From a virus, in the IMG/VR virus record IMGVR_UViG_3300027977_000031, positions 1-64,000 of that record: a DNA stretch of 64,000 bases; one strand, given 5' to 3'. Both the position numbers and the translations under genes were made by a program. Positions 13,108 through 27,158 of this stretch are shown in pieces; position 1 is the first letter of the stretch; the number at the start of each line of letters is the position of its first letter. The notes beneath the pieces are model-generated. The model saw only the letters and a program-made list of their open reading frames with translations. It was not told the origin of the DNA and did not search any database.

Positions 13108-13181
13108 TGGGGGTTAGTTAAATGGTATAACAGCGGATTTTGATTCCGCTATTAATGGTTCGATTCCATTACCCTCTGCCA
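13108..13181 (+). tRNA. tRNA-Gln(TTG)
   Basis: Anticodon arm gcgga-ttTTGat-tccgc; T-arm aatggttcgattccatt; CCA encoded. Confidence 0.7.
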
Positions 13182-13261
13182 TTATTCGTTCTAGGTTCGA
13201 GCCCTGGCACGTCTGCCAAACAACAAAGACCCTTTATATTGAAAGGGCATTACAAAACAAG

Positions 13262-13290
13262 TTGACCAGTATCGCACTAGGTGTTATACT
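13262..13290 (+). promoter_or_regulatory. sigma70-like promoter (TTGACC, 17-nt spacer, TATACT), copy 1 of a tandem duplicate
   Basis: About 50-bp direct repeat acaaaacaagttgaccagtatcgcactaggtgttatactagagactagt. Confidence 0.5.
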
Positions 13291-13356
13291 AGAGACTAGT
13301 CAGAAAGCAACAAGAGTTGCAAAGTCCTTCCAAGTTGTAGGGTTTTGCAAAACAAG

Positions 13357-13385
13357 TTGACCAGTATCGCACTAGGTGTTATACT
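13357..13385 (+). promoter_or_regulatory. sigma70-like promoter, copy 2 of the tandem duplicate
   Basis: Identical -35, spacer and -10 to copy 1, 95 bp downstream. Confidence 0.5.
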
Positions 13386-13717
13386 AGAGACTAGTTAGAA
13401 ACAAAGACAGTTGATAGAGACTACTTTGTATGTTCCTTAAAAAGTTAATTTTTTGTATAGTGTACTCGGGTCAGACCCGGGCACTATATGTAAACAAATA
13501 AGGTTACCTACACCGTTAGGAACTTTGTGCGAGCAACGTGGGGCCGCCCACGCTCAATAGTCAGAGTTCATGAAGCAGGACGTTGATCCGGATTTAGTGC
13601 CGGGGAGTTCGGAGTAGCGGCGGAGAATGTAGGCAGTGATGACCGTGCAGGCCCTATGTAGACGTTGCATAGGGTAGACGAAGATGCACAATGGTTCCTT
13701 GTTTGTTTTCATATAGT

Positions 13718-13792
13718 GGAGCATTCGTCTATCGGTTAGGACAGTGGGTTTTCAGTCCACTAAGAGCGGTTCGATTCCGCTATGCTCTACCA
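13718..13792 (+). tRNA. tRNA-Glu(TTC)
   Basis: Acceptor ggagcat/atgctct; anticodon loop ttTTCag; T-arm agcggttcgattccgct. Confidence 0.8.
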
Positions 13793-13874
13793 AGTTTTAT
13801 AGGAGAGTCGCAGTCGAGTCCATGCGTACTCTTAAACGAAGGGCCTACGGAGCCGCGTCCTGTCATTAGTACAT

Positions 13875-13959
13875 GGAGAATCCGCCGCAATGGTGTGGCA
13901 GGGGACTGTAAATCCTCCGACTTAGGTCATGACTGGTTCGATCCCAGTATTCTCCACCA
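13875..13959 (+). tRNA. tRNA-Tyr(GTA), class II
   Basis: Acceptor ggagaat/attctcc; anticodon loop ctGTAaa; long variable arm. Confidence 0.8.
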
Positions 13960-13963
13960 ATTT

Positions 13964-14039
13964 GGTCTTAAAGTGTTCATGGACGCACGACGGCTTGTCA
14001 CGCCGTAAGAGTGGGGATCGTTACCCCCTAAGACCGCCA
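13964..14039 (+). tRNA. tRNA-Asp(GTC)
   Basis: Acceptor ggtctta/taagacc; anticodon arm acggc-ttGTCac-gccgt. Confidence 0.85.
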
Positions 14040-14240
14040 AAACCACCTTAGGTCCGTTAGTCGCAAACGGTTATGGCAAGGGTTGTTCCTGCCTGGCGTC
14101 CGGATGAATAAGACTGTACCCCGTTAGTGTACGCTGGAGAAAGTAACCAGCACCATTATTGAAGCACATACCTAACGCCCTCTTGGAATGGGAGATAGTG
14201 TCCACAGCACTGAAGAAAGGTTCAAATGTGTTTCAATAAT

Positions 14241-14315
14241 GGGCTGTTAGTGATAATGGTAGCACAGGGGCTTTGCACGTCTCAGGTAAGAGTTCGATTC
14301 TCTTACGGTCCACCA
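14241..14315 (+). tRNA. tRNA-Ala(TGC)
   Basis: Anticodon arm ggggc-ttTGCac-gtctc; T-arm aagagttcgattctctt. Confidence 0.8.
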
Positions 14316-14322
14316 AGTTTAT

Positions 14323-14396
14323 GCGGGATTAGTTTAATGGTAAAACTGTAGATTTCCAATCTTCCGTCATCAGTTCGATTCTGATATCCCGCTCCA
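14323..14396 (+). tRNA. tRNA-Gly(TCC)
   Basis: Acceptor gcgggat/atcccgc; anticodon loop ttTCCaa; T-arm atcagttcgattctgat. Confidence 0.7.
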
Positions 14397-14404
14397 AGTT
14401 TAAT

Positions 14405-14481
14405 CTGTGTTTAGCTCAGTCTGGTAGAGTTCTTGGCCTGGAACCAAGGGGTCGTAGGTTCGAATCCTACAGCGCAGACCA
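14405..14481 (+). tRNA. tRNA-Pro(TGG) (unusual C33)
   Basis: Anticodon arm cttgg-ccTGGaa-ccaag; T-arm gtaggttcgaatcctac. Confidence 0.6.
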
Positions 14482-14486
14482 ATTAA

Positions 14487-14576
14487 GGAACGGTCCCGTA
14501 ATGGTATCGGAGCAGATTGCTAATCTGTCGGCTCACGAAAGTGGGCTTCTGAGTTCGAGTCTCAGTCGTTCCGCCA
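14487..14576 (+). tRNA. tRNA-Ser(GCT), class II
   Basis: Anticodon arm gcaga-ttGCTaa-tctgt; long variable arm; T-arm ctgagttcgagtctcag. Confidence 0.8.
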
Positions 14577-14583
14577 ATATAAT

Positions 14584-14659
14584 GCACCTTTAGCTGATGT
14601 GGTCATAGCGGCGGCCTGAAGAGCCGTGGAAGTTGGTTCAATTCCAACAGGGTGTACCA
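14584..14659 (+). tRNA. tRNA-Phe(GAA) (G37, irregular D-arm)
   Basis: Anticodon arm gcggc-ctGAAga-gccgt; T-arm gttggttcaattccaac. Confidence 0.55.
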
Positions 14660-14956
14660 AGTTTTGTAAGTGTTAGCAAGTGAAGTCACGCTATAAAGGT
14701 TACTTCGAAGGACCAATATAGTAAAAGGTAAGGGGTTCGAATCCCCGGCCCTCGAAAGGGAGTTAGTTCCAAACGGTGGACATGCTGGATGAATCCCAAG
14801 TAACGTACCGAATCCCGCTCGAGCTTGTTAATTCGGGTGAATGGTTCCTATAATGTGGTGGAACAACTTACAAATTCAATATGGAGATATAGTTGATGTC
14901 AGCACAGTGACTGAAATTTTCTGTATCACCACTCAAGAGATATATAAAATACTATT

Positions 14957-15034
14957 CCGCAGAACCCGAGCGTGGTGCATGGGCTGGACTGTTAATCCAT
15001 GGTTAGCTGGGATCGTCACCCAGATGCGGAGCCA
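14957..15034 (+). pseudogene. degenerate tRNA-like gene (possible Asn GTT anticodon; A54 T-loop atcgtca; acceptor mismatch)
   Basis: Acceptor tccgcag/atgcgga (6 of 7 pairs); 4-bp anticodon stem tgga/tcca with loop ctGTTaa; ends gCCA. Confidence 0.3.
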
Positions 15035-15039
15035 AACAA

Positions 15040-15113
15040 GCCCCATTAGTATAATGGCATTATGACGGTTTTGTAATCCGTTGGCGGGAGTTCGATTCTC
15101 TCATGGGGCACCA
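15040..15113 (+). tRNA. tRNA-Thr(TGT)
   Basis: Acceptor gccccat/atggggc; anticodon loop ttTGTaa. Confidence 0.75.
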
Positions 15114-15119
15114 AGTTAT

Positions 15120-15198
15120 CGCGGGGTAGGGGAGTCTAGTCGTCCCCGCCAGTCTCATAAGCTGGAGATCGGAGGTGCGAATCCTCCCCCCGCAACCA
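15120..15198 (+). tRNA. initiator tRNA-fMet(CAT)
   Basis: 5' CGCGGGG ... CCCCGCAACCA 3' with a C1xA72 mismatch as in E. coli tRNAfMet; anticodon loop ctCATaa. Confidence 0.85.
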
Positions 15199-15274
15199 AG
15201 TCATGTCCATGCGTCACTCACTTTGACTGAGTGTTTGCTCTATTAGATTTAGAGAGCCTCTGGACTGTTTCTTT

Positions 15275-15352
15275 ACCGCTTTAGCTCAATTGGATCAGAG
15301 CACTGTGCTACGAACGCAGGGGTTGGGAGTTCGAATCTCTCAGGTGGTGCCA
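15275..15352 (+). tRNA. tRNA-Arg(ACG)
   Basis: Anticodon arm ctgtg-ctACGaa-cgcag; D-arm gctc..gagc. Confidence 0.85.
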
Positions 15353-15357
15353 AATAT

Positions 15358-15432
15358 TGCCGCGTAACTCAGAGGTAGAGTAATCGCTTGATAAGCGATA
15401 AGTCGACATTTCGAAATTGTCCGTGGCAACCA
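15358..15432 (+). tRNA. tRNA-Ile(GAT)
   Basis: Anticodon arm atcgc-ttGATaa-gcgat. Confidence 0.85.
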
Positions 15433-15441
15433 AAAAAACAG

Positions 15442-15470
15442 TTGACAACTACTGTAAAAGGTTGTATAAT
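15442..15470 (+). promoter_or_regulatory. sigma70-like promoter (TTGACA, 17-nt spacer, TATAAT) inside the tRNA array
   Basis: Perfect consensus hexamers with 17-nt spacing. Confidence 0.6.
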
Positions 15471-15580
15471 ATAAACTTAAACACAAAGAGGTAATGACAT
15501 GAAACGTGCAAAACGCTAGTGTCGCTCTAGATCCCGTATTGGTCTAGGGTTGGCACATTAAATCAATTTAATACAACTAA

Positions 15581-15654
15581 CCCTCACAAGCATTAAGGTG
15601 ATGCACTCGGCTCTTAACCGAAAGAACACGGATCATTCCCGTGGTGTGGGACCA
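15581..15654 (+). pseudogene. degenerate tRNA-like gene (anticodon CTT? A8; T-loop atcattc)
   Basis: Acceptor ccctcac/gtgtggg (one mismatch); D-stem gcat/atgc; anticodon loop ctCTTaa; ends aCCA. Confidence 0.3.
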
Positions 15655-15658
15655 ATAT

Positions 15659-15734
15659 GGGATCATAGTTTAACGGTTAAAACATCACCCTTTTAAGGTG
15701 TAAGCTCTCGGTTCGAATCCGAGTGGTCCTACCA
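15659..15734 (+). tRNA. tRNA-Lys(TTT)
   Basis: Anticodon loop ctTTTaa; T-arm ctcggttcgaatccgag. Confidence 0.8.
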
Positions 15735-16391
15735 ATTTTCTAATAACCGATGTTCTAGATTGAGAATGAATTTATATCCAAGTGCGGTATATGCTTCTTT
15801 CTTATCACGCATTTCAGTTTCGTCTAACCAGTAAGTAGATTTAACTTCTACGATAGTGTTAGTTTCGGGTAGATAAAAATCAGGTATTGCTATTCTGTAG
15901 CGTTGCTGATTAGAGTTAAAATATTTTATTCGTAAGTGTTCTACAAAATATTTTGTTTGCGATTGATCGAGGAGTTTGGCATAATCTTCTTCGTATGATG
16001 ATCTTAGACAAAATATTTCTCCAAACCAAGCAGTATGGAAAATATGTTTGAATCTAGTATTACTTGGCATAACAACTCTATTAGTTGTTATTGCATTTGA
16101 TTGACTTTCTGAAAATGATCGTGCCTCGATATCAAACAGTCTAAAAATAATGTCCATAGTTCTTGAACTAGGTATGCTAAATTGTTTCATAAGTGTTAGC
16201 ATAGATTCGCATTTAATATGATATTCAGTATATAGCATAGACTGAATTTTTAAAAATTCAGTCTCGGCACTATTATCATAGTTAAATCCTAGCTTAATCA
16301 AGTTAGGTGATTTGTTTTTATAGAATTGACTTTTAAGAAAGTTTTGTATTATCATATAGTTATTTATCAGATTAAAAATATTTTTAACCAT
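15729..16391 (-). CDS. PD-(D/E)xK-type nuclease, probable homing endonuclease (AT-rich insert in the tRNA array)
   Basis: C-terminal IPDFYLP...IVEVK fits a PD...ExK motif; markedly AT-rich versus flanks; opposite strand inside the tRNA cluster. Confidence 0.4.
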   Translation of the reverse strand: MVKNIFNLINNYMIIQNFLKSQFYKNKSPNLIKLGFNYDNSAETEFLKIQSMLYTEYHIKCESMLTLMKQFSIPSSRTMDIIFRLFDIEARSFSESQSNAITTNRVVMPSNTRFKHIFHTAWFGEIFCLRSSYEEDYAKLLDQSQTKYFVEHLRIKYFNSNQQRYRIAIPDFYLPETNTIVEVKSTYWLDETEMRDKKEAYTALGYKFILNLEHRLLENW

Positions 16392-16714
16392 ATAAAAACA
16401 TATTAGAAGCCTTCGTGACTGTGGGCAAGTAGGTCTCTAAGTCGTTTCCGACTAGTGTGTTTCTATATGGTAAGTCGCATCCGAAAAGAAAACATCCCTT
16501 CGAAAAGGATTGTAGCAGTAAGACAAGATAAGCGGCGAGACTAGATGAGGCAAGGGTTCGGGTCCCAACGTTCATCAATAATTTGCTTAGTAAGGCGCAC
16601 GAAAGGCAAGTTGGCTTGACTCTCCATATAAAAACACATTGGCAATGCGATGTTTACAACCTTGGCAAAAGGAGTCGGCATTTCAAATGCAGAGTGTGTT
16701 TCTATATGGTTTAT

Positions 16715-16790
16715 GGTGTTTGTCGCCAAGTGGTAAGGCCTCGGGTTGTGATTCCGATATGCGTGGGTTCGATCCCCATCAGACACCCCA
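16715..16790 (+). tRNA. tRNA-His(GTG) with G-1
   Basis: Extra 5' G opposite discriminator C; anticodon arm tcggg-ttGTGat-tccga. Confidence 0.85.
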
Positions 16791-16970
16791 AATTAAAGAT
16801 TGTTTATAAAACGCAAAGCTAGATTCACGTTGGTAAAATAACGCATTTGAGCTTGGGCATTAAACACATCGTAAACAATGATGTAGCAAACACCGCGATC
16901 ACTTAGGCTTAGATAGAAATTCAAGCCCTGTGGTGTTAGATTTTGATAGCGTCTCACACAAGTATTTATT

Positions 16971-17045
16971 GGTCATGTGGCGTAGATGGATGCGCACCGC
17001 CCTCATAAGGCGAGGAGGTTGGATCGATACCAACCATGACCACCA
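16971..17045 (+). tRNA. tRNA-Met(CAT) elongator or Ile2-type (third CAT tRNA)
   Basis: Acceptor ggtcatg/catgacc; anticodon loop ctCATaa; T-loop atcgata. Confidence 0.8.
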
Positions 17046-17053
17046 AGAAATTT

Positions 17054-17137
17054 GCCCCGGTGGTGTAATGGCAGCCACGCTGGTCTTAGAAGCCAGTGCC
17101 GAAAGGCGTGTCGGTTCGAGTCCGACCTGGGGCACCA
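17054..17137 (+). tRNA. tRNA-Leu(TAG), class II
   Basis: Anticodon arm ctggt-ctTAGaa-gccag; long variable arm; T-arm gtcggttcgagtccgac. Confidence 0.85.
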
Positions 17138-17218
17138 AGTTGCTAGGCCTATGGCTTGGTCGGCGGGTTTGATTCCTGCACAGTGTATGTGGATATAAAA
17201 ATTTGGTAACATTGATTG

Positions 17219-17247
17219 TTGACTAGTTCAGCAGTCAGTGTTATAAT
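17219..17247 (+). promoter_or_regulatory. sigma70-like promoter (TTGACT, 17-nt spacer, TATAAT)
   Basis: Consensus hexamers with 17-nt spacing, ahead of the 1-kb non-coding stretch. Confidence 0.55.
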
Positions 17248-17739
17248 AAGATTCAAGGGCGGTTTAACGTCCTATAAGCTAGCTTGCTGGTTTATGAAGA
17301 ATAACTGTGGTGACACAGCCAAAGGAGGTATGCCTACATAACTCCGCTAGAGATAGTTCGTTTAAGCAAGCCTGATTCAGGTCCGTGAGGATCCGATCAC
17401 TGATAAGACCGGTGGTTGTAACAATGACGCTGGATGTTGTGGAAAGAATTAGTGGCTCAAGCGCCTGCAAGGGTAACGCAAGTCATTAGAGAGTAACAGG
17501 TGGTGCTGACCTCACAACAAAACCAGTCCAGTTAATTGGTATGAGAAAGGGTAGTGTACGTGTCCGAGAGGTTGCACTCAAGGGCTTGTATGCAGTTTAA
17601 GTGGTTGATGGATGCGTAGCAATATGCAGACATTGGTCGCAAAAAACGTCTGAGTAGTTCGCAAGACAAAAGGAACGTGGTGTGTTGTATTGTGTATTCC
17701 AAAAGAGTATGCAGCAACTGAGTCAGCACATCGCAGTAG

Positions 17740-17811
17740 GTTGTTATAAGCTAATGGTAAGCTAACTCCCTGTTAAGGAGTCGACTGCGGGTTCAACTCC
17801 CGCTAACGATT
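17740..17811 (+). tRNA. tRNA-Asn(GTT) (no encoded CCA)
   Basis: Acceptor gttgtta/taacgat; D-arm agct-aatggta-agct; anticodon arm actcc-ctGTTaa-ggagt; T-arm gcgggttcaactcccgc. Confidence 0.65.
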
Positions 17812-18232
17812 AAAATGCAAAGACTGACTCGGTCGTATGTGAAAAGCATCTAATACTTGAGCCGCAAGGTAATCAAGTCAGACGTAACTCGCAAGGTGAA
17901 ATCTGTTTATGCAGGAAGTTTCGTAACAGTTTAGCGACTGTGAATGGCTCTAAAGGTCAACGGGATAGAAAGCGTAGAATAGCATACGATGTCAAGACTA
18001 ATGCCTGTCTTTAAACGGCGATGTTGGTAACAGACTAGATTACATAGCAATATGGATTTAGTGGAAGTCAGAAGAAGGTAGACTCGCAAGGTTTACTATA
18101 ATGTCTGAGGTGTTACTCGGTAAGGATGTATTCTCAGTCCTCCACTATTCTAAAGCACATTTTGATGCCTATAAGGTTATAAGGTTGATCGCTTATAATA
18201 CGGTGTGTGATGAGTGTGTTTCAGAATAGCCT

Positions 18233-18257
18233 GCCTGGTTAGCTCAGGGGTAGAGAG
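18233..18257 (+). pseudogene. orphan tRNA 5' fragment (acceptor plus D-arm) complementary to the 3' acceptor strand of the tRNA at 18888
   Basis: gcctggt-ta-gctcaggggtagaga; rc of gcctggt matches accaggt at 18953-18959. Confidence 0.4.
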
Positions 18258-18300
18258 TATTTTTGTTCAATCATGCTAAATAGTTGAGCAAGGAAATATT

Positions 18301-18822
18301 ATGTATAAATGCCACTGTGGGAAAGAATTTGAAAATCATCGTGCTAGAAATGCTCATCAAATAGCACACAAAGATAAACCTAGTCGCTACTCAATGAGTA
18401 GGAAAAAAAATCAAAGACTGTATGAGTGTGGGTATTGTAATGCAGAGTTTGAGCACAGTAATAGCACTGAAAATAAGTTTTGTTCAGTTGAATGTTCTGG
18501 AAAATATCAATGGGAGTTTGTCTCAATTCCTAAAATTGAACAAGGACTTGGTGGAAACTATAAGCGATATCTTAAAGAAAAATGCGGAGATAGTTGTGTT
18601 GAATGTGGGCAAGAAAATACCTGGAATAGCAAGCCGCTTGTATTACAATTAGATCACATAGATGGTAACAGCGATAATAATCAATTGAGTAATTTAAGAT
18701 TATTGTGTCCTAATTGTCATACACAAACAGAAACATTTGGCAATGCCGGACAAGGAAGTAGATATAAAAAGAATACGAAAAGAAATTCGTATTTGAGAGA
18801 GTACAAGGCCTCGGTAGTTTAA
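18301..18822 (+). CDS. HNH homing endonuclease
   Basis: DHIDGNSDNNQLSNLRLLCPNCH motif; multiple CxxC; AT-rich insertion. Confidence 0.7.
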   Translation: MYKCHCGKEFENHRARNAHQIAHKDKPSRYSMSRKKNQRLYECGYCNAEFEHSNSTENKFCSVECSGKYQWEFVSIPKIEQGLGGNYKRYLKEKCGDSCVECGQENTWNSKPLVLQLDHIDGNSDNNQLSNLRLLCPNCHTQTETFGNAGQGSRYKKNTKRNSYLREYKASVV

Positions 18823-18881
18823 TGGTAGAACGCCATCCTTACACGGTGGATACGGGAGTTCGATTCTCCAACGAGGTACCA
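18808..18881 (+). tRNA. tRNA-Val(TAC)
   Basis: Anticodon arm ccatc-ctTACac-ggtgg; overlaps the 3' end of the HNH ORF. Confidence 0.7.
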
Positions 18882-18887
18882 AATATT

Positions 18888-18963
18888 GCCAAGATAGCTC
18901 AGTAGGTAGAGCACCGGATTGAAAATCCGGGTGTGGGCGGTTCGATCCCGTCACCAGGTACCA
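18888..18963 (+). tRNA. tRNA-Phe(GAA) with defective 5' acceptor strand (3 mismatches)
   Basis: Anticodon arm ccgga-ttGAAaa-tccgg; T-arm ggcggttcgatcccgtc; 5' gccaaga does not pair with 3' accaggt. Confidence 0.5.
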
Positions 18964-18966
18964 AAT

Positions 18967-19371
18967 AACATGACCAAAGTAATAGTAAACGGAACATTTG
19001 ATATATTGCATCGTGGACATCTAATGATGTTACAACACGCAAAAAGTCTCGGCGATCATCTGTTAGTGGCAATTGATACAGATCGAAGAGTAAAAGAACT
19101 TAAAGGTGAAAATCGGCCTATTAATAATCAAGATGATAGACGATATATGTTAGAAAGTTTAAAATGTGTTAACACTGTTTACTTCTTTGATAGCAAAGAA
19201 CAACTGATAGATATAATGAAAGAATATAAACCAGACATCATGGTCAAAGGCAGTGACTGGCAAGGTAAGAGCGTAGTGGCACAAGAACATGTTAATCAAG
19301 TGATATTTTATGATAGAGTCGGTGAATACTCAACAACAAAAACAATTCAAGATATTGCTAATAGGCGATAA
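18967..19371 (+). CDS. nucleotidyltransferase (cytidylyl/adenylyltransferase, RfaE domain II / HldE C-terminal-like)
   Basis: NGTFDILHRGH (HxGH) motif. Confidence 0.7.
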   Translation, partial: NMTKVIVNGTFDILHRGHLMMLQHAKSLGDHLLVAIDTDRRVKELKGENRPINNQDDRRYMLESLKCVNTVYFFDSKEQLIDIMKEYKPDIMVKGSDWQGKSVVAQEHVNQVIFYDRVGEYSTTKTIQDIANRR

Positions 19372-20071
19372 CTGTACTGATGTGTACCAATATGGTACTA
19401 TTGATAGGTTAAGTCCCGAAGCACCTGTTCCTGTATTTGTTCCTACTCGTACAGAAGAACGTGCTGGCATGGCTGGTAATGTAGCTAACAACTTAAAAGC
19501 ACTGGGTTGCTATGTTGACTACTTGCACGGTGAAACAAGTGTTAAAACTAGACTTATCGACGAGCGTAGTAAACAACAGATTGTTCGTATAGATAGAGAC
19601 GTTCAGTCAACTCCCATTACATTTGATACAGATATCCCCGACATGTACGATGCTATTGTAATCAGTGATTATAATAAAGGAACTGTTAGTTACGAACTAA
19701 TTGAAGAACTTATTGCATTGAGTATTCCTATCTTTATCGATACTAAGAAATCTGACCTTGAGAGATTCCAAGGCGCATGGGTCAAGATCAACGAATTAGA
19801 ACATAGCAAAATTAAAAGTGAATGTTCAGGTCTAATCGTCACACGAGGCAGTCGAGGTGCTAGTGCAATACATCATAGTATAGATGTATCTTCGCACAGT
19901 GTAGAAGTAGTAGATGTAACTGGAGCAGGTGATACCTTTCTAGCAGCGTTAACTTATCAGTACCTTGACACTGGAGACATTGAAAAAGCAATTAAATTTG
20001 CCAACCTGGCGAGTGCGGTTACTGTGCAGCATTCAGGGGTTTATGCTCCAACATTAAAGGAAATAGGATGA
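19310..20071 (+). CDS. PfkB-family carbohydrate kinase (RfaE domain I / heptose-7-P kinase-like)
   Basis: VTGAGDTF ribokinase-family signature. Confidence 0.65.
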   Translation: MIESVNTQQQKQFKILLIGDNCTDVYQYGTIDRLSPEAPVPVFVPTRTEERAGMAGNVANNLKALGCYVDYLHGETSVKTRLIDERSKQQIVRIDRDVQSTPITFDTDIPDMYDAIVISDYNKGTVSYELIEELIALSIPIFIDTKKSDLERFQGAWVKINELEHSKIKSECSGLIVTRGSRGASAIHHSIDVSSHSVEVVDVTGAGDTFLAALTYQYLDTGDIEKAIKFANLASAVTVQHSGVYAPTLKEIG

Positions 20072-20427
20072 CACAATTACAAGGTTATGTAGCAAAGGGA
20101 TGGGGCCACGAACTAATTTGGGCCACTAACGACCTATACTGTGGCAAACTTATGAAGTTTAACAAAGGTGCCAAGTTCAGCATGCATTTTCATGCTATCA
20201 AAGACGAAACATGGTATGTGTTGGACGGATTGTTCACTGTGATCAGTATTGACACTACAAATGCTGATCAAACAACCACAACACTTAAACCAGGCGACAC
20301 TTGGCGCAACAAACCGTTAGCGCCTCATCAGTTGATATGCATCGAAGAAGGCACAGTTATTGAAGTCAGCACAGCAGACAGTGTGGAAGACAACTATCGT
20401 GTGGGCAAAGGCGACAATCAAAAATGA
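20068..20427 (+). CDS. cupin-fold protein (sugar isomerase/epimerase-like)
   Basis: Size and HxH...E-like beta-barrel pattern; sits in the sugar operon; overlapping stops. Confidence 0.3.
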   Translation: MTQLQGYVAKGWGHELIWATNDLYCGKLMKFNKGAKFSMHFHAIKDETWYVLDGLFTVISIDTTNADQTTTTLKPGDTWRNKPLAPHQLICIEEGTVIEVSTADSVEDNYRVGKGDNQK

Positions 20428-21215
20428 ACATACTGTTAACCGGCTATAAAGGTTTTATTGGTAGTCATGTGCTGACAGCACTGGAGGCTGCTGGACACTG
20501 TGTATCAACATACGACTGGGGAGACAGTTTGCCCAGCGTGATGGAACAAGATTGGGTGATTCACCTTGGTGCTATCAGCAGCACTACCGAAAGAGACATA
20601 GACAAAGTAATGCGACAAAATTTTGATTTTAGTCGACAACTATACGATGCTTGTAAAACATATGGCGTTAATTTCCAATACGCAAGCAGTGCAAGTGTTT
20701 ACGGGTTAACCAGTACATTTAGAGAAGACGCTCCGGTTGACCCACGTACTCCTTATGCGTGGAGCAAATACTTGTTTGAACGTTATGTACGCGATCATCC
20801 AAGTGGGAGTGTTGTACAAGGTTTCCGTTATTTTAATGTGTACGGACCTGAAGGCGAAGAACACAAAGGCAATCAAGCTAGTCCGTTTATGCAATTTAAA
20901 CGCCAAGCTGAAACAAACGGCTGTATACAAGTTTTCGAAGGCAGTGAATATTATCTAAGAGACTTTGTTCATGTGTCTAAACTAGTCGACACACACTTGG
21001 ATTTCTTGTATAATACACCTAGTGGCCTATGGAACTTGGGTACTGGAAAGACCATGAGTTTTATGGATGTGGCAAAAAGTTTTAACGTACCTGTTGAAAC
21101 AATCCCCATGCCCGACAATTTAAAAGACTCATATCAAAAGTACACCTGTGCTGATATGAGCAAGTTTAACGCAACGGTGGCAGAGAGGTCCAATGCACGG
21201 GATTGCAAATCCTGA
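20424..21215 (+). CDS. NAD-dependent epimerase/dehydratase (HldD/RfaD-like); the 3' end runs 45 nt into tRNA-Cys
   Basis: Rossmann GYKGFIGS (GxxGxxG); the ORF only terminates inside the tRNA at 21171. Confidence 0.6.
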   Translation: MNILLTGYKGFIGSHVLTALEAAGHCVSTYDWGDSLPSVMEQDWVIHLGAISSTTERDIDKVMRQNFDFSRQLYDACKTYGVNFQYASSASVYGLTSTFREDAPVDPRTPYAWSKYLFERYVRDHPSGSVVQGFRYFNVYGPEGEEHKGNQASPFMQFKRQAETNGCIQVFEGSEYYLRDFVHVSKLVDTHLDFLYNTPSGLWNLGTGKTMSFMDVAKSFNVPVETIPMPDNLKDSYQKYTCADMSKFNATVAERSNARDCKS

Positions 21216-21248
21216 AAACCGGGGGTTCAAATCCCTCCCGTTGCTCCA
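21171..21248 (+). tRNA. tRNA-Cys(GCA)
   Basis: Acceptor gcaacgg/ccgttgc; anticodon arm cggga-ttGCAaa-tcctg; T-arm gggggttcaaatccctc. Confidence 0.85.
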
Positions 21249-21255
21249 GTTAATA

Positions 21256-21330
21256 CTCGGTGAGGTGTTGATGGCGACACACGTGGTTTGGGACCATGAA
21301 TGGCAGATTCGAGCTCTGCCACCGAGACCA
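21256..21330 (+). tRNA. tRNA-Pro(TGG)
   Basis: Acceptor ctcggtg/caccgag; anticodon arm cgtgg-ttTGGga-ccatg. Confidence 0.7.
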
Positions 21331-21336
21331 AACAAT

Positions 21337-21420
21337 GCGACTGTGGCGTAATTGGTAGCCGCAAGGGACTTAAAATCCCTCGAGTTTCTCGTACCGGTTC
21401 GAGTCCGGTCAGTCGCACCA
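21337..21420 (+). tRNA. tRNA-Leu(TAA), class II
   Basis: Acceptor gcgactg/cagtcgc; anticodon arm aggga-ctTAAaa-tccct. Confidence 0.85.
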
Positions 21421-21434
21421 TTTTGTTTCGAGCG

Positions 21435-21463
21435 TACGGGTTCGAATCCCGTCTCTCGTACCA
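21435..21463 (+). pseudogene. tRNA 3' fragment (T-arm plus acceptor 3' strand plus CCA) with no 5' half
   Basis: acgggttcgaatcccgt-ctctcgt-a-cca only 15 nt after the previous tRNA. Confidence 0.35.
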
Positions 21464-21526
21464 ATATCAAAGTAAATTTACAGAGGATACCAAAGTAAAT
21501 TTATCTGGCGTTCATTCATTAAATTT

Positions 21527-21601
21527 GCGGCTATAGTATAACGGATAATACAGCGGTCTTCTACACCGTGAATGTGGGTTCGATTCCTGCTAGCCGCACC
21601 A
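21527..21601 (+). tRNA. tRNA-Arg(TCT)
   Basis: Acceptor gcggcta/tagccgc; anticodon arm gcggt-ctTCTac-accgt. Confidence 0.85.
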
Positions 21602-21607
21602 GACAAT

Positions 21608-21699
21608 GCCAGCGAGACTGGGTAGTCAGAGAGGTCTTATAAGTCTTTTAGCGCCAGATTAGCGTTCTTGAGAGAGTTCGAGTCTCTCCGCTGGTACCA
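21608..21699 (+). tRNA. class II tRNA (long variable arm), anticodon unresolved (best fold gives TAT)
   Basis: Acceptor gccagcg/cgctggt; T-arm gagagttcgagtctctc; 92 nt; anticodon stem has multiple wobbles. Confidence 0.45.
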
Positions 21700-21706
21700 A
21701 AAATAT

Positions 21707-21783
21707 GCATCGTTAGTTCCAATTGGCAGAACGTTGGTCTCCAAAACCAAATGTTGTACGTTCGAATCGTACACGGTGCGCCA
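21707..21783 (+). tRNA. tRNA-Trp(CCA)
   Basis: Anticodon arm ttggt-ctCCAaa-accaa; D-arm gttc..gaac. Confidence 0.85.
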
Positions 21784-21800
21784 ATCAAAGAAAGTGAATC

Positions 21801-22283: not shown

Positions 22284-22292
22284 CCAAAACAG

Positions 22293-22321
22293 TTGATTTA
22301 CATCGCTGTTTTGTATATAAT
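22293..22321 (+). promoter_or_regulatory. sigma70-like promoter (TTGATT, 17-nt spacer, TATAAT)
   Basis: Near-consensus hexamers; about 270-nt ORF-free leader before the gene at 22589. Confidence 0.4.
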
Positions 22322-22588
22322 TGTTTTTGTCAACGCGAGTTGACTGGCAAGAACCAAGTAGATTAGCACAGACAAACGTTGGCTTCATGCCAACACCAGC
22401 CTGAACAGCTGAACAAAATTGGCCTCCAAGGAAACTTGGATCGTGCTTGTGTGAACCGGACTTATTATAGACATTTGCACTTTGATAACCGGACATACGC
22501 AGGCCACTGTGGTTTGTACTTTGCATGTTGCATATTGCACCTTGCTTAGTCTGTGACTTGACTTGGGTCTTGCCGCCCTTATTGTTTA

Positions 22589-23173
22589 ATGAAAGAAATT
22601 ATGAAAATCAATCTACGCAAAGCTAACGCATTGCAACTGTCTATCCAGGATGCAATCAAAAGTATTAAATTTGACACTGAAGTCAAAATCAACGAATTCC
22701 AAGTTGCCGAAGATGTAATCGCCAACTATCGTCAGGATTTTGCTATCAAGCAAGACCGCCATCGTGGGCTGCTAAACAGTCTGTATGATATCCGTAAGGC
22801 TGTGAGCCAGGCTAACAGTGCCCAGGGTGTTGATATCAAATTGGCTGATGTGGCCCTGCTGGACAAAAAGATTCAGTATCTTGCCGAATTGGCTGGTAAA
22901 AGTACACGTGATAGCATGGAGGTTGTTGCCGGTAAGATAGAAAAAATTCGTAATCGCAAGGAAGACGCTCGTAGTTTGTATTACGGACATGATGTCACTG
23001 TGGATACTTCTATCTTCACAGCGGAAGACATTGCTGGATTCCGTACAGCAGTGAGTATGGGCAAGAAAGCCAAACAAAAATTGCAAGATGAATTGTTGGA
23101 AATCAACGTTCGCACTGAAATCGAACTCAGTGCAGATGTGGTCACTGTGTTGACTGCGGAAGGTCTGTTGTAG
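22589..23173 (+). CDS. hypothetical protein
   Basis: ORF. Confidence 0.45.
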   Translation: MKEIMKINLRKANALQLSIQDAIKSIKFDTEVKINEFQVAEDVIANYRQDFAIKQDRHRGLLNSLYDIRKAVSQANSAQGVDIKLADVALLDKKIQYLAELAGKSTRDSMEVVAGKIEKIRNRKEDARSLYYGHDVTVDTSIFTAEDIAGFRTAVSMGKKAKQKLQDELLEINVRTEIELSADVVTVLTAEGLL

Positions 23174-23444
23174 GACCAAGCCTGTAAAGGATGTTCATTG
23201 CCCGAGTTCTCAATCTATTAGAGAATTCAGCTTCGGACAGCACACCCTTTGCTAGATTACACTTACGACAAGTCACTTGTAGATTGTCGTAAGTGGTTGC
23301 TCCACCTCGAGATTCAGGTATAACATGATCCATATGGATCTCAGCATCTGTGAGATCTTCATCACAGTACACACAATACACGCCATCGCGTTCAATGATC
23401 CTGCGTCGTAGATTTAATGGTATATGTTGTTTTGTTCGTAGCAC
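23142..23444 (-). CDS. HNH endonuclease (small)
   Basis: HMDHVIPESRGG...NLQVTCRKCN motif. Confidence 0.65.
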   Translation of the reverse strand: MLRTKQHIPLNLRRRIIERDGVYCVYCDEDLTDAEIHMDHVIPESRGGATTYDNLQVTCRKCNLAKGVLSEAEFSNRLRTRAMNILYRLGPTTDLPQSTQ

Positions 23445-23504
23445 AAGAATATTTATTAGTTGGTACTAAATCAATTTAAATATATAATAGAGCTAATATT
23501 TAAA

Positions 23505-24197
23505 ATGAAATTGATTTTTTGTTTCCCAGGGCAATCATTCAGTAAAAATTGGATGGCCGCATGGAATGACACTATTCGTTGGCTTTATAAAAACAATATA
23601 GAATACATAACCATAAATGCATATTCGCCGGTAATTTACAACTGTCGAAACATGTTGTTGGGTGCCACTGGCAATCCTCCCAGGACTTTCCAGCCATTCA
23701 ACGGCACAATAGATTACGATTGGATCATCTGGATCGACAACGATAATATCTGGACACCTGCTGATCTTGCACAATTGATCAGCAACCCCGAACACAAGAT
23801 TGTCACTGGACTTTATATACAGCATGACAATAAAACTTATGCACAGGCTGTGATTCATGGTGATAGCAAAACCAACCTGTTGTGGTTACCACGAGAGCTA
23901 GTACAAATCAACGGAAGTAGATTCCAAGTGGCCGCAACAGGTATGGGTTTTATGGCTGTGCAAAAAGGTGTATTTGAATCCATGGAATGCCCATTCTTCC
24001 GACCCGTCGAATACAAAGTTGATGATGATACAACTGCATTTTTATCAGAGGATACAGGGTTCTGTCACAGAGCTATAAATGCAGGATATAATGTATGGGC
24101 AGATCCACAGATTCAGGTCCAACATGAGAAGGCATGGTTGTTGTCCGGCAACAGTGAACACGGGGTTCGACCTGAGAATATTGTGTTAAATAGATAA
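23505..24197 (+). CDS. hypothetical protein, possible glycosyltransferase
   Basis: DxD-like IWIDNDN; ATGA overlap with the downstream radical SAM gene. Confidence 0.3.
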   Translation: MKLIFCFPGQSFSKNWMAAWNDTIRWLYKNNIEYITINAYSPVIYNCRNMLLGATGNPPRTFQPFNGTIDYDWIIWIDNDNIWTPADLAQLISNPEHKIVTGLYIQHDNKTYAQAVIHGDSKTNLLWLPRELVQINGSRFQVAATGMGFMAVQKGVFESMECPFFRPVEYKVDDDTTAFLSEDTGFCHRAINAGYNVWADPQIQVQHEKAWLLSGNSEHGVRPENIVLNR

Positions 24198-25240
24198 TGC
24201 AACCACCCAAATTCTTGTTCTTAGATATCAACCTACAATGCAATCTCAAATGCAAGACCTGCATGTATTGGACCAGAGAAGAAGTTGTATTACCCACACA
24301 CATATCTATAGAACAACGCAGTGATATCATCACGGAATTCAGTTCCTTAAATCCGTATGGTGCCGTGGTAATCTGTGGCGGCGAAGCCTTGATGAATCCC
24401 GAAAGATATTGGCCTATAACCACTCAATGTCGTGAGTTAGGATTAAAATGTTTGAGTGTGATGAATGGCACCATGGTCACAGATCTGGCGTTTGCCAAGA
24501 AATTGATCACACAAGGTCCTAGTGAAATAACAATTTCGCTAAACAGTTACATTCCAGAAGTACATGATTCAACTCGCGGAGTCACAGGATCATTTGATAT
24601 GGCAGTGAATGCTATTCGGTTGTTGTTGCAGGCAAGAAAAGAATTAAACAGCAACACCCCCATCTATGCCATGTCGGTCATGTGCGAACAGAACTATCGA
24701 GACCTGGATCAGTTTTACCACTTTGTGTTGAATGATCTCGGAGCAGATAAGTTAAAATTGAATTGGTTGCAGCCAACATTTGGCACATTGTTAGACAAGA
24801 ATGGCGATCCAAGACCAGACAAATTTTACGACAACAATGTGATCCGCGATCATGAAGCATTGTTTGAGATCATGAATCATTGTTCAGAAAAATATCAGTT
24901 GAATCTAGATCCTGAATATATAGAAACTGTACGTCGATATCATCGCAGTGTGTTTAAAAATGCAGATGCTGTGACAGGATGGGACGGACACGGTACTGAA
25001 GATGCCATATGCAATAGTTTTGATCGCAACATCATGGTCAACATGGATGGTATTGCCCGTTTGTGTTTTTCTGATCAGTTTCCCAGTTTCAAGATTAGCA
25101 GTCCTGGTGATCTCACACGATTATGGAACAGTGCCGAACCAATAAGAAATCTCATGAGACCTTGTAGACAATATTGCGGAATCAGTCACAGTGTGAGAAG
25201 AGTCAATGCTGTGAAGAAGATTGACATCAATTTGGTTTGA
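24197..25240 (+). CDS. radical SAM enzyme
   Basis: CNLKCKTC = CxxxCxxC near the N-terminus; CGGEA glycine-rich motif. Confidence 0.65.
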   Translation: MQPPKFLFLDINLQCNLKCKTCMYWTREEVVLPTHISIEQRSDIITEFSSLNPYGAVVICGGEALMNPERYWPITTQCRELGLKCLSVMNGTMVTDLAFAKKLITQGPSEITISLNSYIPEVHDSTRGVTGSFDMAVNAIRLLLQARKELNSNTPIYAMSVMCEQNYRDLDQFYHFVLNDLGADKLKLNWLQPTFGTLLDKNGDPRPDKFYDNNVIRDHEALFEIMNHCSEKYQLNLDPEYIETVRRYHRSVFKNADAVTGWDGHGTEDAICNSFDRNIMVNMDGIARLCFSDQFPSFKISSPGDLTRLWNSAEPIRNLMRPCRQYCGISHSVRRVNAVKKIDINLV

Positions 25241-25259
25241 ATATATAATAACAACATAA

Positions 25260-25334
25260 GCGGGCATGGTGCTAGTGGTAACACATAACTTTGCCAAAGT
25301 TAAATTGCGGGTTCGATTCCCGCTGTCCGCTCCA
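25260..25334 (+). tRNA. tRNA-Gly(GCC)
   Basis: Acceptor gcgggca/tgtccgc; anticodon arm taact-ttGCCaa-agtta; T-arm gcgggttcgattcccgc. Confidence 0.85.
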
Positions 25335-25475
25335 GAGCAGAAGATAGATTACGTTATTGGTATGAGTTACAAGGTACCGCGGTAAATCCTTGAGCAAGCA
25401 ATGGTACAAACACAACGTAATAGGCAGTAGTGATCTACTCATCGGGACCGGCCTCAAAACGAATCCCACCAATTT

Positions 25476-25567
25476 GGAGAGTAATGCAGCGGGGATGGTC
25501 CTGCGACTGGCCTTGAAAACCAGGTTCTCAGAAATGGGATGGGGTTCGACTCCTCTGCTCTCCGCCA
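25476..25567 (+). tRNA. tRNA-Ser(TGA), class II
   Basis: Acceptor ggagagt/gctctcc; anticodon loop ctTGAaa; 92 nt. Confidence 0.6.
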
Positions 25568-25663
25568 GATAACACGGCCCTGCCCTCTGTGTAACTGCCA
25601 CTCCCAGAAGTTGTTATATACGGCAGGGTTCTTCTTCAGGGCCGAGCGTTCAACGGATAGATT

Positions 25664-25741
25664 GCGACTGTATGCCGCTTGGCTTCGAACCAAGAGAAAG
25701 CTAAAGGATTCATGCAGGTTCGAGTCCTGCCAGTCGCTCCA
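25664..25741 (+). pseudogene. aberrant tRNA-like gene (same acceptor as Leu-TAA; perfect hairpin cttgg-cttcgaa-ccaag in place of a D-arm)
   Basis: Acceptor gcgactg/cagtcgc; T-arm gcaggttcgagtcctgc; CCA encoded; internal arms non-canonical. Confidence 0.35.
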
Positions 25742-26640
25742 TAAAATTTCATGTTTGATTCATGATATACCGCAGTGGAAAATCTCTACCGTACATTTTC
25801 CATAGTGTTGAATAGTATTCGTAGGACCTGTCATGAGAATATAACATTCTTTGTACGTTCATTGTGGTTGGAAATCCAGGATATTCTAACAATAGTGGAA
25901 TATTGTAAACTGTATCACATAATCCATTGAATAATGTATTTTCAATAGTTGCATAATAAAACATTGTGGAGCCGTCATTATAGGGTATTCTAAAATCATA
26001 ATTTAAAGCATCTATCCAATGTCGATCTAATATTTTTTTAATGTATTCACGTTTGAACAGTCCGGCACCACCAAAATCGTCCCATTCTTTTTTTCGTAGT
26101 TGCAGTGATGGTATTTCAAATTTGATAGCATTGTTAATCAATCCAACATGCCAATTATTAATACGTACTAAGTGTACAGCTTCCCAATCAGTGGGCAAGT
26201 TATCTACAAACTCTTGCCAGGTAAAACTCCAATGGTCAATAGATTCAAAACTCATGTCGTCATCACAAAATATCACATGTTCTTCATTGGTTGTATCATA
26301 CCAATTTTTCATTGCAGTCAAATAACTAATAATCGTACCTGGATGGCTGAATCCTTGAAATGTTTCAGCATCCTCTTTGACAACTTCTGGCCACAAAATA
26401 TTAACTTTATGTTGAAATGTAGTATATCTGTGATTCAAACATGGCATGTAACGTATACTATATCTAGTCAATTGAGCATTCATAAACTCCATTCGATCTA
26501 TGTTCTCGTATAGTGTGATATAATTCACTGTGGGAAAGTTTGTTAGTTTGGCCATAGTGTATATATATTTTACTGACACATGGAAAGGTAAAAACAGAGG
26601 AAACGGAAGAGCAGCAAGAGGTCTTCCACTAAATTAATTT

Positions 26641-26715
26641 GCTGATATAACACAGAGGTAGTGTGCTTTCTTGGTATGAAAGAGGTCGTAGGTTCAAATC
26701 CTGCTATCAGCACCA
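26641..26715 (+). tRNA. tRNA-Thr(GGT)
   Basis: Acceptor gctgata/tatcagc; anticodon arm ctttc-ttGGTat-gaaag. Confidence 0.85.
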
Positions 26716-26722: not shown

Positions 26723-26751
26723 TTGACAGCATGTAGAAATAAATATATACT
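26723..26751 (+). promoter_or_regulatory. sigma70-like promoter (TTGACA, 17-nt spacer, TATACT) driving the tmRNA
   Basis: Consensus hexamers immediately upstream of the tmRNA acceptor piece. Confidence 0.55.
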
Positions 26752-26786
26752 GTAAGTTAAGACTGTATGAAGGAAAAAGAACAATT

Positions 26787-27065: not shown

Positions 27066-27068
27066 GAC
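27042..27068 (+). terminator. rho-independent terminator (3' end of the tmRNA coding piece)
   Basis: gcccgc-ttcg-gcgggc followed by TTTCTTTTG. Confidence 0.75.
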
Positions 27069-27158
27069 TGTTATTTCTCAATCACTATATACTAGCATAG
27101 GCACACAAACAGAATACTTCGAACGCATTGGATATCACCAAATTGAAACAGTTCTGAC

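Follow-up and report, generated by a model that had tools for sequence, protein, structure and literature searches.

The window analysed here is a stretch of 64,000 nucleotides, positions 1 to 64,000 of the IMG/VR virus record IMGVR_UViG_3300027977_000031, and between positions 13108 and 26715 it very probably holds a phage transfer RNA (tRNA) island that contains a member of a constrained family of extra-arm tRNAs with the anticodon UAU, called tRNA(UAU) below. The family is widespread and under strong constraint, and it has apparently not been described before. The island itself is real and, as a tRNA island, ordinary for a large phage, and an earlier note on the window, made by a model from the letters alone, had read it for the most part correctly. 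A class II species that the earlier note had left without an identity is the tRNA(UAU) gene at 21608-21699, so that AUA decoding need not rest on a lysidine tRNA alone. Also overlooked at that stage were the phage setting, a GOLLD RNA and a transfer-messenger RNA (tmRNA). The island, the GOLLD RNA and the tmRNA each belong to a known kind; the tRNA(UAU) family, together with T loops of the A54/U58 type that run through the whole lineage, is what rises above the routine.

A constrained family of extra-arm tRNAs

The gene at 21608-21699 folds into a 7-bp acceptor stem followed by A73-CCA, a 4-bp D stem with a GG tetraloop, a 6-bp anticodon stem carrying the anticodon loop CUUAUAA, and a 5-bp T stem, with 1 nt between the acceptor and D stems and an extra hairpin of the form agcgc-CAGAUUA-gcguu. 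Class II tRNAs combine a long arm with a Leu, Ser or Tyr anticodon; here the arm is present and the anticodon is UAU.

The family was sampled without bias from 80 loci picked via a neighbouring protein, with no selection on any tRNA motif. About half of these loci contain a tRNA(UAU), and every one is 90-95 nt long by ARAGORN. Together with the window copy and copies from four isolates they yield 32 unique sequences, among which the hairpin loop reads CAGAUUA or CAGAUAA in 29 (the remaining three have UAGAUGA, CCGAUUA and UAGAUUG). All 32 have A73, 31 of them ending in ACCA and one in AUUA.

Covariation was scored on an alignment of 60 tRNA(UAU) sequences less than 80% identical to one another, with 500 shuffles as the control. 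Paired cells make up 91.8% of the real alignment and 57.9% of the shuffled ones, and the covariation score of 0.86 (0.21 when shuffled) was reached by none of the 500; alignments slid out of register likewise fall far below the real one. The 7-bp acceptor stem is 99.5% paired and the 5-bp T stem 98.7%. For the three inner pairs of the extra hairpin the figure is 95-100%, and they show 5, 29 and 16 double changes; more than 35 different hairpin stems flank one and the same loop. The arrangement of acceptor and T stem is 7/5, because pair 7-66 is kept (100% paired) and so is the first T-stem pair, found in 59 of the 60 sequences as GC (27), CG (21), AU (6), UA (4) or GU (1).

Isolated phages carry the same tRNA: those of Vibrio (henriette 12B8 and the Thalassavirus group), Acinetobacter (vB_AbaS_qsb1), Sinorhizobium (Phosso), Synechococcus (S-SRM01), Lactobacillus (LpeD) and Levilactobacillus (ENFP1). 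The isolate records label these tRNAs plain tRNA-Ile or leave them unannotated, a warning for annotation in general, since genes of 88-96 nt are being called ordinary 'tRNA-Ile' or missed. Pattern scans, in which the loop motif was fixed by our own pattern (only the 32-sequence set is unbiased for the loop), matched at least 119 contigs in IMG/VR and at least 120 contigs in bacterial genomes. ARAGORN folded 114 of the IMG/VR matches listed, 113 of them as tRNA(UAU), and 107 are unique. Among the bacterial matches listed, most belong to tRNA arrays with the order Met(CAU) - UAU - Val - Ile(GAU) in Acidobacteriota, Bacteroidota and Gammaproteobacteria, and some are single genes in Xanthomonas, Ruegeria, Microbulbifer and Marinobacter. 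The presence of a tRNA with one and the same hairpin loop in phages of Firmicutes, Proteobacteria and Cyanobacteria and in mobile arrays points to a transferable answer to the problem of AUA decoding.

Two body plans are found within the family, a normal class-I D arm in most members and the compact D arm with a 6-bp anticodon stem of the window copy. The closest relative of the window, locus L001, shares with it the GOLLD RNA and a 100% identical flanking protein, and at the very same slot, flanked by Arg(UCU) and Trp, its tRNA(UAU) (9810-9901) follows the other body plan. This indicates cassette replacement within the arrays, and because the two plans are swapped in the same slot, it argues that they are functionally interchangeable.

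The closest described RNA is the allo-tRNA(UAU) of Mukai et al. 2017 (PMC5389517), which shares the UAU anticodon, the long extra arm and the five-stem junction, and which, like the present family, occurs in Acidobacteria and other bacteria. Its Sec-like compact D arm and 6-bp anticodon stem are shared by the window scaffold, most other members of our family having a class-I D arm. Moreover, allo-tRNAs are defined there by 8/4 or 9/3 stems and have G73 or U73 (Ser identity), whereas the family described here is 7/5 with covariation support and has A73 throughout the 32 sequences. The main text of PMC5389517 mentions neither a CAGAUWA hairpin loop nor a place in complete phage tRNA sets. By these descriptions the two are set apart, although the sets may overlap to some extent. 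A full-text literature search returned no description of a 7/5 extra-arm tRNA-Ile(UAU) in phages, an absence that is no proof, and a 2020 review of non-canonical tRNAs contains nothing like the family.

Two further kinds of tRNA invite comparison. The 'Ile3' tRNA-Ile(UAU) of Mycoplasma mobile, Bifidobacterium and Neorickettsia also decodes AUA by UAU and independently of TilS (PMC3575796, PMC8450103). It is an ordinary class I tRNA that needs an adapted isoleucyl-tRNA synthetase (IleRS; Arg865 in M. mobile) and a ribosome that avoids reading AUG, whereas the extra-arm tRNA(UAU) travels among unrelated hosts and has an extra hairpin instead. The nematode nev-tRNA-Ile(UAU) is likewise class II-shaped with a UAU anticodon (PMC3333845), but it is an analogue in shape only: it is eukaryotic, nematode-specific, derived from tRNA-Leu and charged with Leu in vitro, whereas here AUA is Ile-like and the sequence of the hairpin loop is conserved.

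AUA decoding and a possible role for the hairpin

No sense codon is harder for bacteria to read than AUA, which normally calls for lysidine, made by TilS. The IleRS of E. coli charges tRNA-Ile2 with a UAU anticodon 360-fold worse than the lysidine (LAU) form, and a UAU tRNA misreads AUG on E. coli ribosomes (PMC3575796). A UAU tRNA moving among unrelated hosts would thus need its own means of recognition.

In 34 open reading frames (ORFs) of the window AUA accounts for 212 of 804 Ile codons (26%). Where alignments of orthologues have an AUA column, the residues that replace it are I (33%), V (25%), L (12%) and M (11%), which is the replacement spectrum of AUC and AUU and unlike that of Ser and Leu codons; because of this likeness to AUU and AUC, AUA specifies an Ile-like residue in these phages. 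The codon would be served by two routes, the lysidine-type CAU tRNA at 7678 and the 92-nt tRNA(UAU), which we infer to be an isoleucine tRNA.

The same substitution data bear on whether tRNA(UAU) is instead charged by an anticodon-blind SerRS or LeuRS, with AUA recoded or deliberately mistranslated as Ser or Leu. The AUA spectrum of I, V, L and M resembles neither that of Ser codons (S, A, N) nor that of Leu codons (L 38-46%). The long extra arm of tRNA(UAU) would suit such enzymes and A73 is the LeuRS discriminator; a nematode class II tRNA(UAU) takes Leu in vitro (PMC3333845, PMC4300185), and allo-tRNAs put Ser at non-Ser codons in E. coli (PMC5389517). Yet A73 stands where Ser-type tRNAs have G73 or U73, and the class-I D arm of most members is unlike that of tRNA-Leu or tRNA-Ser. 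Neither SerRS nor LeuRS recognises an extra arm by its sequence, and yet the loop sequence is the most conserved element here. We consider charging with Ser or Leu highly improbable.

It is less improbable, though still unlikely, that tRNA(UAU) does not serve translation and is a regulatory or selfish tRNA-shaped RNA (for example one linked to a toxin-antitoxin system or a transposon, or a nuclease decoy) whose hairpin binds some other partner. UAU is the commonest allo-tRNA anticodon; six variants were inactive in E. coli, two were toxic, and a non-translational role was proposed (PMC5389517). The window copy shares the Sec-like compact D arm and 6-bp anticodon stem with these RNAs. About 38 of the bacterial matches listed are single genes outside arrays, beside unannotated ORFs, and clustering of the ORFs neighbouring single bacterial copies gave as candidate partners only lineage-specific hypothetical proteins, with no integrase or synthetase found. 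What speaks for translation is that every feature it requires is kept, and that these features covary (the 7/5 arrangement, the GG of the D loop, the T loop UUCRA, U33, A37 and A73-CCA), that tRNA(UAU) fills the AUA slot by Ile(GAU) and Met(CAU) in otherwise complete phage and bacterial sets, that the phages make heavy use of AUA, and that two scaffolds replace each other in one slot.

With tRNA(UAU) taken as an isoleucine tRNA, the extra hairpin may be a recognition element acting in trans. Beyond the universal tRNA features, the family conserves only the anticodon loop, A73 and the hairpin loop. Compared with the anticodon loop of tRNA-Ile(GAU), C-U-G-A-U-A-A, the hairpin loop C-A-G-A-U-W-A matches at 5-6 of 7 positions; the equivalent of U33 always differs, and in the CAGAUUA variant so does that of A37. 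The hairpin could therefore be a surrogate GAU anticodon loop, read by the ordinary IleRS of the host in place of the poorly recognised UAU, the mechanism that we favour among those considered, though tentatively, as possible and no further. There is a precedent of a kind in archaeal LeuRS, a class Ia synthetase and homologue of IleRS, whose C-terminal domain in the Pyrococcus horikoshii complex reportedly recognises the tip of the long variable arm of tRNA-Leu, so that bases at the tip of an extra arm can be read; enzyme and tRNA differ from the present case, and we know of nothing comparable for IleRS. If the surrogate anticodon were real, tRNA(UAU) would be an AUA decoder portable to any host, with no need for TilS or for an adapted IleRS. 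It would add a fourth natural class to the bacterial long-arm tRNAs and would be the first instance in which an identity element has been copied onto an extra arm. For synthetic biology the family offers a candidate orthogonal handle for reassigning AUA.

Several points weigh against these readings. The loop has A, and no U, at the equivalent of position 33, and at that of 37 U is as frequent as A. It is doubtful whether a hairpin of 3-5 bp on linkers of 2-5 nt reaches the anticodon-binding domain of IleRS. The six allo-tRNA(UAU) variants mentioned above, which come from acidobacteria and are perhaps related to this family, showed no activity in E. coli once their anticodons had been changed (PMC5389517). 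The substitution test gives the meaning of AUA and not the tRNA that reads it, and the tRNA-Ile2 of the host, or the CAU tRNA at 7678, could do all of the AUA decoding. Constancy of the loop among the scanned matches was built into the pattern, as noted above, and three or four members of the island look decayed (18888, 25664, perhaps 25476, and the GOLLD insert). Alternatively, the hairpin might be the binding site of another factor, a purely architectural element or part of a non-translational RNA. A codon mimic of the AUN type, pairing with the tRNA's own anticodon, is less likely, because the commonest loop variant puts U opposite U34.

Long-arm Arg, Lys, Glu and Thr tRNAs on Leu- or Ser-like bodies also occur in bacterial and phage arrays (Table 1). 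A general rule by which extra arms mimic the cognate anticodon was considered and rejected, as the loops of these long-arm tRNAs are unrelated to their anticodons.

The tRNA complement of the island

The whole window was searched with ARAGORN at its default setting and at -ps90, and with Rfam model RF00005 at the gathering score. An 80% ARAGORN threshold produced noise on both strands, and the 90% set was taken as the sensible limit. The earlier note had claimed dispersed arrays of about 30 tRNAs and proposed ARAGORN as a check. At default this program finds 29 tRNAs in the window, 28 of them within 13108-26715 and all on the + strand, with anticodons nearly all as listed, and Rfam recovers 23 of these 28 and adds 18888-18960 and 25664-25738. 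The -ps90 setting adds four candidates within the range (14956-15034, 18897-18963, 25476-25567 and 25651-25737) and essentially none elsewhere. Bacterial-type tRNA cloverleaves are thus found by two independent methods, and with 28 solid and 4 marginal members the range holds about 32 tRNA or tRNA-like genes, in six clusters on one strand with small ORFs between them, a many-tRNA cluster inside a phage genome.

The set covers 20 of 20 amino acids. CCA is encoded in 31 of 33 genes when the one at 7678 is included, the exceptions being 7678 and 17739. Species with U34 or G34 predominate, matching the A/U-rich codon choice of the phage. Most likely the island supports translation: together with the two-piece tmRNA, the GOLLD RNA and two RNA ligases, its tRNAs, once expressed and charged, would sustain the translation of phage mRNAs at times when the tRNAs of the host are in short supply, degraded or cleaved. 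It is a well-resolved case of a phage decoding kit, with 20 amino acids, CCA, tmRNA, GOLLD and RNA ligases. Like the tRNA islands of T4-like, T5-like, mycobacteriophage and 'huge' phages and the mobile bacterial arrays, often near GOLLD or ROOL and tmRNA, it has dozens of same-strand tRNAs for most or all amino acids, HNH endonucleases and small ORFs, GOLLD and tmRNA. It does not differ from them in kind, yet it is unusually complete (20 amino acids, CCA in 31 of 33) and rich in non-canonical members, namely the A54/U58 T loops and the extra-arm tRNA(UAU).

In its details the earlier list stands up well. It omitted Lys(CUU) at 15581-15654, and its Ser(TGA) and second Phe(GAA), counted there as confident, are present as marginal genes below the ARAGORN default. 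The Asn it gave does have the anticodon GUU at 17739, within a tRNA-like insert of the GOLLD RNA that lacks CCA. A second Asn(GUU)-like gene, with G73-CCA, is at 14956, and related phages likewise carry two Asn(GUU) genes. The G-1 claimed for tRNA-His is there, a G at 16715 opposite C73.

The possible three-way CAT set of the earlier note fared less simply: the window does have three CAU tRNAs, of which only two (15120 and 16971) lie within 13108-26715, the third being at 7678-7751. We sorted them by published base-pair rules, under which A11:U24 is reported as 100% conserved in bacterial initiators, and tRNA-Ile(CAT) is marked by G3 or A3 with C70 or U70, frequently with C4-G69 or C5-G68 (PMC1635315). 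The gene at 15120-15198, read before as fMet, has the acceptor ends claimed for it, CGCGGGG...CCCCGCAACCA, with the mismatch C1xA72 followed by G2:C71 and C3:G70 (cgcgggg...ccccgcaacca), a formylation-type end as in initiators. Its D stem, gggg/uccc, has G12:C23, but G11:C24 replaces A11:U24, and its anticodon stem, ccagu/gcugg, reads A29-U41, G30-C40 and U31.G39 and so departs from R29-G30-G31/Y39-C40-Y41, one of the three G:C pairs being absent; the initiator of related phages has an alpha-proteobacterial-type AGG/CCU anticodon stem. With a T loop UGCGAAU and a D loop that lacks GG, the gene is best called initiator-like with deviations. At 7678-7751 the pairs G3-C70 and C5-G68 are those of tRNA-Ile2(CAU), and by these rules the gene appears to be of the Ile2/lysidine type. 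The third, at 16971-17045, has U3-A70 with C4-G69, which is ambiguous, and it is assigned to elongator Met by default. A three-way CAU set is thus plausible for the window, though not within 13108-26715.

T loops with A54 were another claim of the earlier note, and all three it named are present: ATCGATA in 16971, ATCGTCA in 14956 and ATCATTC in 15581, to which ATCGTTA in the Asp gene at 13964 can be added. Among 1183 unique tRNAs from the 80 related loci (L001-L080), loops of the AUCGUUA type, in which A54 and U58 swap the usual U54-A58 pair, occur in many isotypes: Asp (25 of 43 unique), Ile(GAU), His, Glu, Thr(GGU), Met and others. Because the stems of these tRNAs show compensatory changes, they look like working genes and not decaying ones, and A54 T loops are, judged from such comparisons, a real lineage trait of these phages. 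The A54/U58 swap would remove the substrates for m5U54 and m1A58.

The more irregular members are listed with the others in Table 1. The second Phe(GAA) is probably decayed, going by its acceptor stem. At 25664-25741 the Rfam alignment has 4 nt in place of the D arm and a 16-nt insertion in the variable region, and this is probably no working tRNA. An assignment of this locus as Arg(UCG) was rejected: it has no D arm, and relatives have a canonical Arg(UCG) that is neither related nor orthologous to it. The irregular class II gene at 25476-25567, read by hand, is probably Ser(UGA), the tRNA that relatives have in the same slot. Fragments of tRNA lie at 13195-13215, 14725-14760, 18230-18260 and 21421-21465, namely 'minihelices' of T arm plus acceptor (two with terminal CCA) and one 5' half with a D arm. 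Most probably these are what is left of decayed tRNA genes, though they might be processing signals.

Table 1. Features of the window (tRNA genes all on the + strand) and, in the last row, long-arm tRNAs of other loci in the coordinates of those loci
Feature	Position	ARAGORN score	Rfam (bits)	Remarks
tRNA(CAU), Ile2/lysidine-like	7678-7751	118.4	59.1	no CCA; outside 13108-26715
tRNA-Gln(UUG)	13108-13181	121.0	60.2	CCA
tRNA-Glu(UUC)	13718-13792	117.9	51.1	CCA
tRNA-Tyr(GUA)	13875-13959	102.4	32.7	class II, CCA; Rfam only via same-clan Sec model
tRNA-Asp(GUC)	13964-14039	108.4		T loop AUCGUUA (A54/U58 swapped)
tRNA-Ala(UGC)	14241-14315	109.6	50.1	G3.U70
tRNA-Gly(UCC)	14323-14396	108.8	63.6	
tRNA-Pro(UGG)	14405-14481	117.1	59.3	first copy
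tRNA-Ser(GCU)	14487-14576	114.5	47.4	class II, G73
tRNA-Phe(GAA)	14584-14659	117.5	57.3	intact copy
Asn(GUU)-like	14956-15034	95.7		-ps90 only; G73-CCA, T loop AUCGUCA, 4-bp anticodon stem
tRNA-Thr(UGU)	15040-15113	107.8	61.4	
tRNA(CAU), initiator-like	15120-15198	111.0	50.9	
tRNA-Arg(ACG)	15275-15352	117.1	55.5	
tRNA-Ile(GAU)	15358-15432	106.1	55.4	anticodon loop UUGAUAA
tRNA-Lys(CUU)	15581-15654	100.9		T loop AUCAUUC; 12/12 consensus promoter at 15442-15470
tRNA-Lys(UUU)	15659-15734	116.4	67.6	
tRNA-His(GUG)	16715-16790	111.9	53.6	encoded G-1 opposite C73
tRNA(CAU), elongator-Met-like by default	16971-17045	105.6	50.3	T loop AUCGAUA (A54, A60)
tRNA-Leu(UAG)	17054-17137	118.1	51.7	class II
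GOLLD RNA	17219-18140 (+)			variable 5' half, conserved 3' domain 17677-18140; promoter-like site 17219-17247
tRNA-like Asn(GUU) insert in GOLLD	17739-17812	114.3	62.4	
tRNA-Val(UAC)	18808-18881	105.4	50.1	
second Phe(GAA)	18888-18963	92.6	48.5	CCA, three acceptor-stem mismatches; ARAGORN truncated fold only
tRNA-Cys(GCA)	21171-21248	118.1	59.7	
tRNA-Pro(UGG)	21256-21330	104.7		second copy; not in Rfam lists
tRNA-Leu(UAA)	21337-21420	119.9	57.2	class II
tRNA-Arg(UCU)	21527-21601	119.5	63.5	
extra-arm tRNA(UAU)	21608-21699	102.1		92 nt
tRNA-Trp(CCA)	21707-21783	112.1	56.3	
tRNA-Gly(GCC)	25260-25334	114.5	56.6	12/12 consensus promoter at 25221-25249
irregular class II	25476-25567	98.9	34.9	-ps90, anticodon mis-registered; Rfam Sec model, below gathering; G73-CCA, anticodon loop CUUGAAA
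aberrant tRNA-like	25664-25741		41.4	loop CUUCGAA (UCG), U73-CCA
tRNA-Thr(GGU)	26641-26715	114.8		masked in Rfam list by overlapping same-clan tmRNA match
two-piece (permuted) tmRNA	26723-27062 (+)			promoter 26723-26751; terminator 27039-27060
RNA ligases (two)	3556-4584 and 10734-11636			one PF09414 type with PHA02142 OB domain, one T4 Rnl1 type
HNH endonuclease and endonuclease-like ORF	18301-18822 and 15729-16391 (- strand)			wedged among tRNA clusters
long-arm tRNAs	L212 3681-3862; L223 5547-5635; L251 6799-6887; L299 4198-4287 and 6902-6990; L046 8592-8679			

Phage setting and other non-coding RNAs

The window comes from a large tailed phage that is uncultured. Its ORFs downstream of the island match PHROG families of virion structural, scaffold and head-closure proteins, one of the virion proteins being 1634 amino acids long, and of HNH endonucleases. 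A search of IMG/VR with the RNase H-like protein of the island retrieves 219 related stretches, whose contigs reach ~200 kb and which bear 20-37 tRNAs each in the same neighbourhood; every close relative is a viral contig from IMG/VR, 90-200 kb long. When the whole island was compared with isolated phages by Megablast, only short tRNA-sized matches came up, hence no close relative at the DNA level. Closely similar arrays that include the extra-arm tRNA(UAU) do exist on large contigs of Acidobacteriota, Bacteroidota and Gammaproteobacteria, and the window also codes for an RpoZ-like protein, a TctC-like protein and sugar-nucleotide enzymes, as might be expected if it were a bacterial chromosome or another, non-phage mobile element with a tRNA array. 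Against such an origin stand the virion, scaffold and head-closure matches, among them the 1634-residue protein, the exclusively viral contigs of the close relatives, and the absence of rRNA and housekeeping genes from the 64 kb of the window, and we find it scarcely tenable.

Between the tRNA clusters lie ORFs for an HNH endonuclease, an endonuclease-like protein, an RNase H-like protein, radical SAM enzymes and sugar-nucleotide enzymes. The first two are typical mobile insertions of phage tRNA islands. Both RNA ligases sit upstream of the island; phages use ligases of such types to mend cleaved tRNAs, as is known from T4, and the pair are likely tRNA repair enzymes countering host anticodon nucleases. 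A promoter scan found consensus sigma-70-type promoters ahead of tRNA clusters, the GOLLD RNA and the tmRNA, with 12/12 matches at 15442 and 25221 and 11/12 at 17219 and 26723.

The GOLLD RNA matches RF02032 with 200.8 bits (gathering 150) over model positions 1-416 at 17677-18140, and its promoter at 17219-17247 is 11/12 with a TG. The ~430 nt between this promoter and the Rfam match are conserved along with GOLLD in L001 and L006, the only two of seven close relatives to have it, and appear to fit the variable 5' half of the RNA. A position close to tRNA islands is already described for GOLLD, with phage tRNAs in the linker in some cases (PMC12286853). The Asn insert here has the discriminator U73 if its acceptor is taken as 7 bp, or A if 8 bp.

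The tmRNA directly follows Thr(GGU) and is kept in all seven close relatives tested. It is permuted, with the 3' acceptor piece ...CCCGGUCCACCA first and then the 5' piece GGGCCGG...GAUUCGAC; it matches RF04321 with 94.1 bits (gathering 47) and RF01850 with 91.7 (gathering 84), and ARAGORN at -ps90 reports a tmRNAp at 26730-27090 with the tag ANDAYFGEERLAA and a stop. The model match, the permuted pieces, a G3.U70 pair read from the sequence and a tag frame ending in LAA agree in marking it as a tmRNA. Its best-scoring model is that of betaproteobacterial tmRNA, a hint that the host may be a betaproteobacterium.

A TctC-like periplasmic receptor ORF at 29629-30558 (PF03401) belongs to a family greatly expanded in Betaproteobacteria and would give a second, weak hint of such a host. 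The ORF at 27167-27451 resembles the RNA polymerase omega subunit (PF01192, E 2e-12), unusual cargo for a phage, with an N-terminus that we take to be like that of E. coli RpoZ. Among the tRNA clusters, 18919-21215 and 23460-25240 encode cytidylyltransferase-like, PfkB kinase, NAD-dependent epimerase, glycosyltransferase and radical SAM proteins, which could form a sugar-nucleotide or modification pathway.

A permissive E-value search of the intergenic stretches for further Rfam families returned Plastid-ycf2, rsmX, FuFi-1 and others, all rejected as antisense tRNA matches or chance. Three intergenic stretches deserve mention. The one at 22284-22588 is non-coding and conserved (87-99% identity in five relatives), with a promoter-like site at its start and an extensive predicted consensus structure (-92 kcal/mol, compensatory changes at four pairs); within it GUAGAUUAG is invariant, a heptamer of the type seen in the extra-arm loop, a likeness that may be coincidence. 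Between His and tRNA(CAU), the 180 nt at 16791-16970 are 79-99% conserved in six relatives, and their predicted structure shows no compensatory changes. Finally, a direct repeat of ~48 nt (13253-13300 and 13346-13393) bears, in both of its tandem copies, the promoter-like TTGACC-17-TATACT with an extended TG and precedes a 300-nt non-coding stretch ahead of Glu.

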